A stretch of DNA of 23,256 nucleotides from Corallococcus exercitus (GTDB taxonomy: Bacteria; Myxococcota; Myxococcia; Myxococcales; Myxococcaceae): NCBI RefSeq assembly GCF_013116615.1, contig NZ_JABFJW010000124.1; one strand, 5' to 3'. Position numbers and translations under genes: made by a program. Positions 7,333 through 7,554 of this stretch are shown piece by piece. The notes under the pieces were generated by a model. The model did not search any database, was not told the DNA's origin, and saw only the letters and a program-made list of their open reading frames with translations. Positions within the stretch are counted from its first letter, which is position 1; each line of letters starts with the position of its first letter.

Positions 7333-7554
7333 ATGAAGCCGTCGCGACTGAAGCGGTCCATTCCCGGCCTCGCCCTGATGCTCGGCGCCATGGCGGGCTC
7401 GGCCCTGGCCATGGTTCCCGGCCCGACGGCGGAGACGACCGACACCCAGGCGGTCCGGATGATCTGTTCCGCCAGCTGCAAGCCCTGCTCAACCCAGTAT
7501 GACTGTGGCCAGGGTGAGGGCTCCTGCGGCGTCTGGCGTTGCATCAATCCGTAG
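7333..7554 (+). CDS. Small secreted cysteine-rich peptide (73 aa precursor; ~47-aa mature peptide with 6 Cys)
   Basis: ATG at 7333 with GGAGGA at 7324-7329. MKPSRLKRSIPGLALMLGAMAGSALA|MVPGPTAETTDTQAVRMICSASCKPCSTQYDCGQGEGSCGVWRCINP* has a signal peptide with an AxA site, then Cys spacing C-x3-C-x2-C-x5-C-x6-C-x4-C. Third codon positions are GC-rich. A terminator hairpin follows immediately. It is in the same frame as a long shadow ORF (5428..7554), but the RBS-plus-signal-peptide start at 7333 is the credible one. Confidence 0.55.
   Translation: MKPSRLKRSIPGLALMLGAMAGSALAMVPGPTAETTDTQAVRMICSASCKPCSTQYDCGQGEGSCGVWRCINP

Follow-up and report, generated by a model that had tools for sequence, protein, structure and literature searches.

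Organization of the locus

The window, by which we mean the whole stretch of 23,256 nucleotides of Corallococcus exercitus DNA analysed here, carries at 7333..7554 on the plus strand a precursor coding sequence for 73 amino acids, which starts with an ATG at 7333 and includes the TAG stop codon at 7552-7554. This small ORF is wholly intergenic and does not lie opposite its divergent neighbour (4810..7095, minus strand), a bacterial major vault protein homologue of 761 aa with Vault repeat domains and an MVP_shoulder match (E 3e-45), which is 97-98% identical in other Corallococcus. [quoted passage not shown] On the other side follow, on the minus strand, a convergent ORF of 268 aa (7607..8413), for which we found no Pfam or NCBIfam match, and an RdgC-like gene (about 8283..8950). 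In relatives, the 268-aa ORF is annotated with a length of 229 aa, and it shares about 14 nt with the end of the upstream RdgC-like gene, including its stop codon; judged from this arrangement, the data suggest a conserved two-gene operon. Further on lie genes for a PBP4-type S13 peptidase and for an S9 prolyl oligopeptidase (10646..12826).

The small ORF forms the 3' end, i.e. the last tenth, of a 708-aa ORF on the same strand (5428..7554), which runs antisense to the real 761-aa gene, and the in-frame overlap pointed out in the initial annotation of this DNA is therefore correct. The GC content at the three codon positions is 0.93/0.46/0.71 in the upstream part of the long ORF, which reads as the signature of an antisense shadow, and 0.55/0.61/0.86 in the small ORF, as would be expected for a coding sequence in a window of 70% GC. 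GC3 by itself cannot decide which strand is coding, since the antisense frame of the small ORF has the same third positions and hence shares the GC3 signal, and we used the conservation of stop codons instead: the antisense frame contains internal stops in five of six relatives, while the sense frame is open in all of them. A protein identical to the product of 7333..7554 is already listed at NCBI (NOK10808.1 / WP_171415661.1, Corallococcus exercitus, "hypothetical protein"), and orthologues are annotated as hypothetical proteins of 73-78 aa across many Corallococcus genomes. The initial annotation had considered the gene "unannotatable" and had thought that automated callers might miss it or choose the shadow ORF. 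Since the NCBI pipeline called the short gene and not the shadow ORF, this view is refuted.

Predicted precursor and expression signals

A Shine-Dalgarno sequence, GGAGG (7324..7328, plus strand), can be read four nucleotides 5' of the ATG and is kept in five of six related loci, the exception being locus L004 (C. praedator) with AGAGG. The 73-aa product, as read from the sequence, consists of MKPSRLKRSIPGLALMLGAMAGSALA, MVPGPTAETTDTQAVRM and ICSASCKPCSTQYDCGQGEGSCGVWRCINP, in this order. Its first 26 residues (7333..7410) have the n/h/c layout of a Sec/SPase-I type signal peptide according to rule-based prediction: an n-region MKPSRLKR with a net charge of +4, a hydrophobic h-region and a c-region AGSALA, in which Gly occupies position -5 and A-L-A positions -3 to -1. 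We found neither a lipobox nor a twin-arginine motif, as the first Cys is residue 45 and the n-region (SRLKRS) lacks an RR pair. The signal peptide is followed by residues 27-43, MVPGPTAETTDTQAVRM (7411..7461), an acidic, Thr/Pro-rich and predicted disordered spacer that might serve as a pro-region. Residues 30-39 of it have a pLDDT below 50 in the AF2 model, and among the family members it is between 17 aa (the window copy) and 38 aa long.

The remaining residues 44-73, ICSASCKPCSTQYDCGQGEGSCGVWRCINP (7462..7551), constitute a core with six invariant Cys that fall within 26 residues in the framework C-x3-C-x2-C-x5-C-x6-C-x4-C, which includes a C-x3-C-x2-C cluster. Modelled on its own with AF2, the core reaches a mean pLDDT of 83 and about 90 over the central 20 residues, and it is predicted to be a compact fold that contains only short strands and a single helical turn. 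The core is not cationic: its net charge lies between -3 and +2 within the family, and the window copy is neutral at 0. Thus, the canonical ribosome-binding site, the signal peptide with an AxA site and the Cys spacing proposed in the initial annotation all agree with our analysis, the spacing to the residue.

Upstream of the gene, TCGAAT (7275-7280) and GGATGC (7300-7305) are separated by 19 nt on the plus strand. GATGC and the T..GA of the first element are invariant columns in an alignment of seven loci with differing genomic contexts. A consensus promoter scan found no sigma-70 consensus promoter, and the motif pair does not fit that consensus; we infer from the pair that 7275..7305 is a candidate promoter region for the small gene. 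Downstream, a GC-rich hairpin with a short T run (7564..7598, plus strand) begins ten bases past the stop codon. It has arms of 17 bp (7564-7580 and 7581-7597), folds with -28.7 kcal/mol (z = -4.5; none of 200 shuffled sequences folds as well) and is kept in L001-L004, where compensatory changes occur at three of 15 pairs and T-rich tails follow. The consensus terminator scan did not call the hairpin at 7564-7597, because only three T come after it. In L001, a 1.5-kb cassette is inserted between the hairpin and the convergent gene, which assigns the hairpin to the small gene rather than to its convergent neighbour. Based on folding and conservation, it is probably the intrinsic terminator of the small gene, in accordance with the independent terminator described at the outset.

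Between the vault-protein gene and the small gene, we also observed an inverted repeat with 18-nt arms (7180-7197 and 7226-7243; 89% complementary, 28-nt gap), which is kept in L001-L003 and whose outer pairs appear compensatory by eye. It could act as an operator or form a leader structure in the vault-protein mRNA. An Rfam search of 6900..7800 yielded no match.

Conservation and taxonomic range

A homologue search covering 5.8 billion proteins returned 15 clusters at 66-89% identity, all with lengths of 73-82 aa, and every named entry among them is a Corallococcus "hypothetical protein". Six more distant clusters exist besides these 15. In a profile search covering 1.84 billion cluster representatives, only seven true clusters with members of 73-95 aa were found; the eighth match, P0022 (1587 aa), was discarded as spurious, as it is devoid of the Cys pattern and aligns to the spacer only with low-complexity "VPTVTATT" repeats. 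A word-index search with the paralogue P0021 as query found nothing but P0021 itself.

The family alignment comprises 27 sequences, i.e. the window protein and 26 others. The reading frame is intact in all 26 relatives, and all six Cys together with G63, as well as several signal-peptide residues, are invariant in all 27 sequences. Spacing of the Cys is 3-2-5-6-4 in 25 members and 3-2-4-6-4 in two. The n/h/c signal layout is found throughout (27/27), with an n-region charge of +1 to +4, and positions -3 to -1 read A-L-A or A-L-S in 26 members and T-L-A in P0020. A basic residue two to four positions ahead of the first Cys is nearly universal. The scaffold consists of residues that do not change (Cys, Gly, Ser), and the loops vary from clade to clade, as illustrated by the loop between the fifth and the sixth Cys (GVWR, ANQF, SNRI, GAWL, AETV, QNML), and the C-terminal tail is not conserved (INP, TNPM, TQP, MQ, P, L, YSK).

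To quantify selection, we aligned seven genomic copies by codon; they come from the window, from four Corallococcus species, from Myxococcus sp. Y35 and from a record labelled Comamonas. Between pairs of copies, dN/dS ranges from 0.23 to 0.51, and pooled pN/pS is 0.29 for the Cys core, 0.52 for the signal peptide and 0.69 for the spacer. Indels among orthologues are in frame and multiples of three. The initial annotation had named loss of the ORF or of its Cys pattern in relatives as evidence against a gene; we found no such loss, and both are kept alongside synonymous variation. Judged from these comparisons, the small gene is real and under purifying selection. Besides, pS among the seven orthologues is lower in the part encoding signal peptide and spacer (7333..7461; 0.29) than in the Cys core (7462..7551; 0.53), a possible sign that the 5' end of the mRNA is constrained at the nucleotide level.

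Every family member whose source can be traced belongs to the Myxococcaceae. One of the records, L006 (BNCN01000002.1, 'Comamonas sp. KCTC 72670'), is labelled as a betaproteobacterium. Its DNA has 69% GC, and proteins of Pyxidicoccus and Myxococcus share 86-87% identity with the acyl-CoA ligase encoded beside the small gene; on these grounds, the assembly is almost certainly a mislabelled Myxococcaceae genome. With the Comamonas record assigned in this way, the traceable part of the family is confined to the predatory Myxococcaceae.

Genomic neighbourhood

We compared the surroundings of the small gene in 12 loci and found at least six distinct neighbourhoods. The arrangement seen in the window recurs in L001-L003 and L008-L011 with many indels. 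In L008, L009 and L011, the small gene and the vault-protein gene are separated by a gene for a Cys-rich lipoprotein of 237-249 aa, which has left 3' remnants in L002, L003 and L010 and is absent from the window. A two-gene cassette encoding DUF6310 and DUF5953 proteins follows the hairpin in L001, L008 and L009 and is missing from the window. In L010 and L011, the downstream side of the small gene differs and holds a QRPTase gene and a tRNA synthetase gene. Comparison of 7096..7332 and 7555..7606 with L001 and L008-L011 marks the locus as an insertion/deletion hot spot.

Elsewhere, the neighbours are an Exo_endo_phos gene and a DUF2169/PAAR-like toxin cluster (L004), an Ig-domain protein (L005), the acyl-CoA ligase (L006), or a 622-aa protein without assignment and another small Cys lipoprotein (L012). 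The paralogue COCOR_03148 / P0021 is located between a RidA-family (Ribonuc_L-PSP) gene and an amino-acid permease gene. Across the 12 loci there is no conserved partner gene; maturase, transporter and immunity genes in particular are absent. We also considered, and rejected, a functional link with the vault-protein gene: the two genes are adjacent in eight of the 12 loci, but in L008, L009 and L011 another gene separates them, and the association is missing in L004, L005, L006 and L012. In contrast to these changing neighbours, the ribosome-binding site, the upstream motif and the downstream hairpin travel with the small gene into different neighbourhoods, and based on this co-occurrence the small gene is, as far as can be read from the loci, a stand-alone monocistronic unit.

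Relation to known families

Scanned against Pfam and NCBIfam at E<=10, the window protein gave no meaningful match, and a Pfam scan of all 27 members returned noise only. A sequence-profile search of the PDB (E<=10) found a single unrelated chain by chance (E 0.33), and fold searches of the libraries covered gave no match. Full-text literature searches, by accession and on cysteine-rich secreted peptides of Corallococcus, brought up no paper on the family.

The closest known kind are the cis-defensins (CSαβ) of myxobacteria, i.e. the corallosins, exercitusins and xanthusin-1, two of which, exercitusin-1 and -2, are encoded by C. exercitus itself (PMC11561630). Both groups occur in the same organisms and combine a signal peptide with a core of about 30 aa and three predicted disulfides, and some cis-defensin classes have an acidic/hydrophobic N-terminal tail comparable to the spacer described here. 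Xanthusin-1 was inactive in antimicrobial tests (PMC11561630) and resembles our peptide, as far as its sequence tells, in not behaving like a classic antimicrobial defensin. However, the CSαβ motif pairs CxxxC with a downstream CxC (CxxxC...GxC...CxC; PMC11561630), whereas the family has the CxxxC (C45-C49) but no CxC, with the last two Cys spaced C-x4-C in all 27 members. Moreover, there is no sequence similarity, the AF2 core shows no α-helix packed on a β-sheet, and the strings SCKPC and VWRC as well as the accession are absent from the 74 defensin peptides in the supplement of that study (PMC11561630). The knottin or defensin-like fold that had been suggested initially found no backing in the fold searches, and the CSαβ signature is absent in 27/27.

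Compared with knottin-type inhibitors such as the potato carboxypeptidase inhibitor, the Cys spacing is different and there is no PDB sequence match beyond chance. Knottin-type inhibitors have about 30-40 residues, six Cys and a short tail past the last Cys, and the knottin or inhibitor cystine knot is defined by a I-IV, II-V, III-VI connectivity with knotted topology. The six-Cys peptide is of comparable size and may locally resemble the potato inhibitor (C-x-KPC-x-T-x-x-DC-G/S-G), and a secreted, disulfide-stabilised scaffold with variable loops, predicted in our case, is presumably common to both, although neither the sequence searches nor the fold searches back the resemblance. The unconserved C-terminal tail of the family argues against a carboxypeptidase-plug mechanism.

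UniRef names the orthologue P0025 a "Dickkopf N-terminal cysteine-rich domain-containing protein". A short stretch, C-x5-[DE]-C-G-x3-G-x-C, is reminiscent of a part of many Dickkopf/colipase-like Cys-rich modules. The Dickkopf domain has ten Cys and is eukaryotic. None of the 27 members matches Dickkopf_N (PF04706) or other Cys-rich Pfam domains at E<=10, and the name given to P0025 appears to be automatic and lacks support.

Proposed function and alternative explanations

Taken as a whole, the data make it probable that the gene at 7333..7554 encodes an exported, disulfide-rich mini-protein and that this mini-protein belongs to a new family. The precursor would be exported by the Sec system and cleaved by signal peptidase I after A-L-A26, the site given by the rule-based prediction. 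A Sec substrate of a Gram-negative bacterium reaches the periplasm only. There, the product of about 47 aa would be oxidised to a compact three-disulfide mini-protein on a flexible acidic tail, and the conserved basic residue just before the first Cys possibly marks a second processing site, which would lead to further trimming. The mini-protein may then serve as an inhibitor-like or toxin-like ligand, whose action outside the cytoplasm would consist in binding a specific macromolecule.

This last step is at most tentative, with a rather low chance of being right: the proposed binding function rests on analogy with other cysteine-rich secreted peptides, because the fold searches found nothing. 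A fixed scaffold with variable loops in a neutral peptide favours a target-binding effector over a membrane-active antimicrobial or a metal binder. With a core charge of -3 to +2, and 0 in the window copy, the peptide would not qualify as a cationic antimicrobial peptide. One may speculate further that the family represents an undescribed fold class of bacterial three-disulfide mini-proteins that is peculiar to predatory Myxococcaceae, is employed as secreted toxin-like or inhibitor-like effectors against prey or competitors and arose independently of the CSαβ defensins of the same genomes, an idea that we regard as somewhat less likely still. If it were true, the combination of an invariant scaffold and fast-changing loops would parallel the cysteine-rich toxins of animals and plants.

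An improbable, yet the most serious, alternative to a cleaved precursor is that the signal sequence stays uncleaved as a membrane anchor and that a flexible acidic stalk presents the Cys-rich domain in the periplasm. The hydrophobic stretch I10-V28 comprises 19 residues, and five positions (A14, L15, G18, G22, L25) do not vary even in the remotest family members, a degree of conservation that exceeds what is usual for a disposable signal peptide; besides, the G-x5-G-x3-G pattern resembles a helix-packing motif. However, a canonical AxA/AxS site together with Gly at -5 is present in 26 of the 27 members (P0020 has T at -3), and among the Corallococcus copies the signal region changes more quickly than the core (pN/pS 0.52 against 0.29); both observations speak against an anchor.

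Export of a cleaved mini-protein is also preferred to a ribosomally synthesized and modified (RiPP) precursor, for which we see only a slim chance. According to this reading, an N-terminal leader would precede a Cys-rich core that is modified, for example by thioether or sactionine formation, and released by a protease such as the prolyl oligopeptidase 3 kb downstream. The conserved N-terminus, the variable spacer and the Cys-rich C-terminal core would fit such a precursor, and the S9 prolyl oligopeptidase gene (10646..12826 in the window) is also present in the syntenic loci L008 and L009. Nevertheless, convergent genes and, in some genomes, inserted cassettes lie between it and the small gene, and we found no maturase gene (radical-SAM, LanB/C/M, YcaO or other) in the vicinity of the small gene in any of the 12 loci. 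The neighbourhood is wholly different in L004-L007 and L012 and, on the downstream side, in L010 and L011, and the N-terminus has the form of a Sec signal peptide and not of a cytoplasmic leader.

Equally unlikely is a periplasmic, metallothionein-like protein that binds metal via CxxxC/CxxC thiols. Such a role might be read from six Cys in 26 residues with the C-x3-C-x2-C cluster, but the inferred export leads to an oxidising compartment, His or Met ligands are absent, no metallothionein or metal-chaperone family matches at E<=10, no metal-resistance gene is adjacent in any locus examined, and AF2 predicts a compact fold without metal.

Finally, a spurious ORF, in which the end of the antisense shadow cast by the vault-protein gene would by chance stay open, is hardly conceivable and is already refuted by the conservation data: it would fit the shared frame with the 708-aa ORF, the many long false ORFs of this high-GC genome and the equal GC3 signal of the opposite strand, but the small ORF is wholly intergenic, is kept in at least 26 other sequences in several unrelated contexts with invariant Cys and a conserved ribosome-binding site, shows dN/dS of 0.23-0.51 (all <1) and in-frame indels, and its antisense frame is interrupted in relatives.

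Significance and additional observations

Small secreted cysteine-rich peptides are well studied in eukaryotes and only sparsely in bacteria; among bacteria, it is the myxobacteria whose defensin-like peptides have lately been catalogued. What our analysis adds is a small, previously undescribed family of predicted exported six-Cys mini-proteins, restricted to Myxococcaceae as far as its members are traceable, and with it a second, unrelated six-Cys framework in the same genus. As it stands, the gene is an ordinary orphan "hypothetical protein" that is visible to gene callers, and it makes no long-standing question directly testable. The clean division of the precursor into signal, spacer and core, together with the confidently predicted compact core, should make the peptide easy to synthesize and to test, and inhibitor or toxin activity, if it were established, would allow its use as a new scaffold.

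Two further genes deserve mention. In the window, 1942..3540 (minus strand) encodes a protein of 532 aa with an N-terminal LysM domain and a C-terminal domain similar to the T6SS protein VgrG3 (E 1.5e-53), which, judged by this domain architecture, is likely a secreted cell-wall-degrading effector. In L012, a Myxococcaceae metagenome-assembled genome, an unrelated 77-aa ORF (5344..5577, plus strand) follows the distant family member P0018; with its lipoprotein-type signal (…VLSAC) and a four-Cys C-terminal module, it is by its predicted features another small exported Cys-rich peptide gene.
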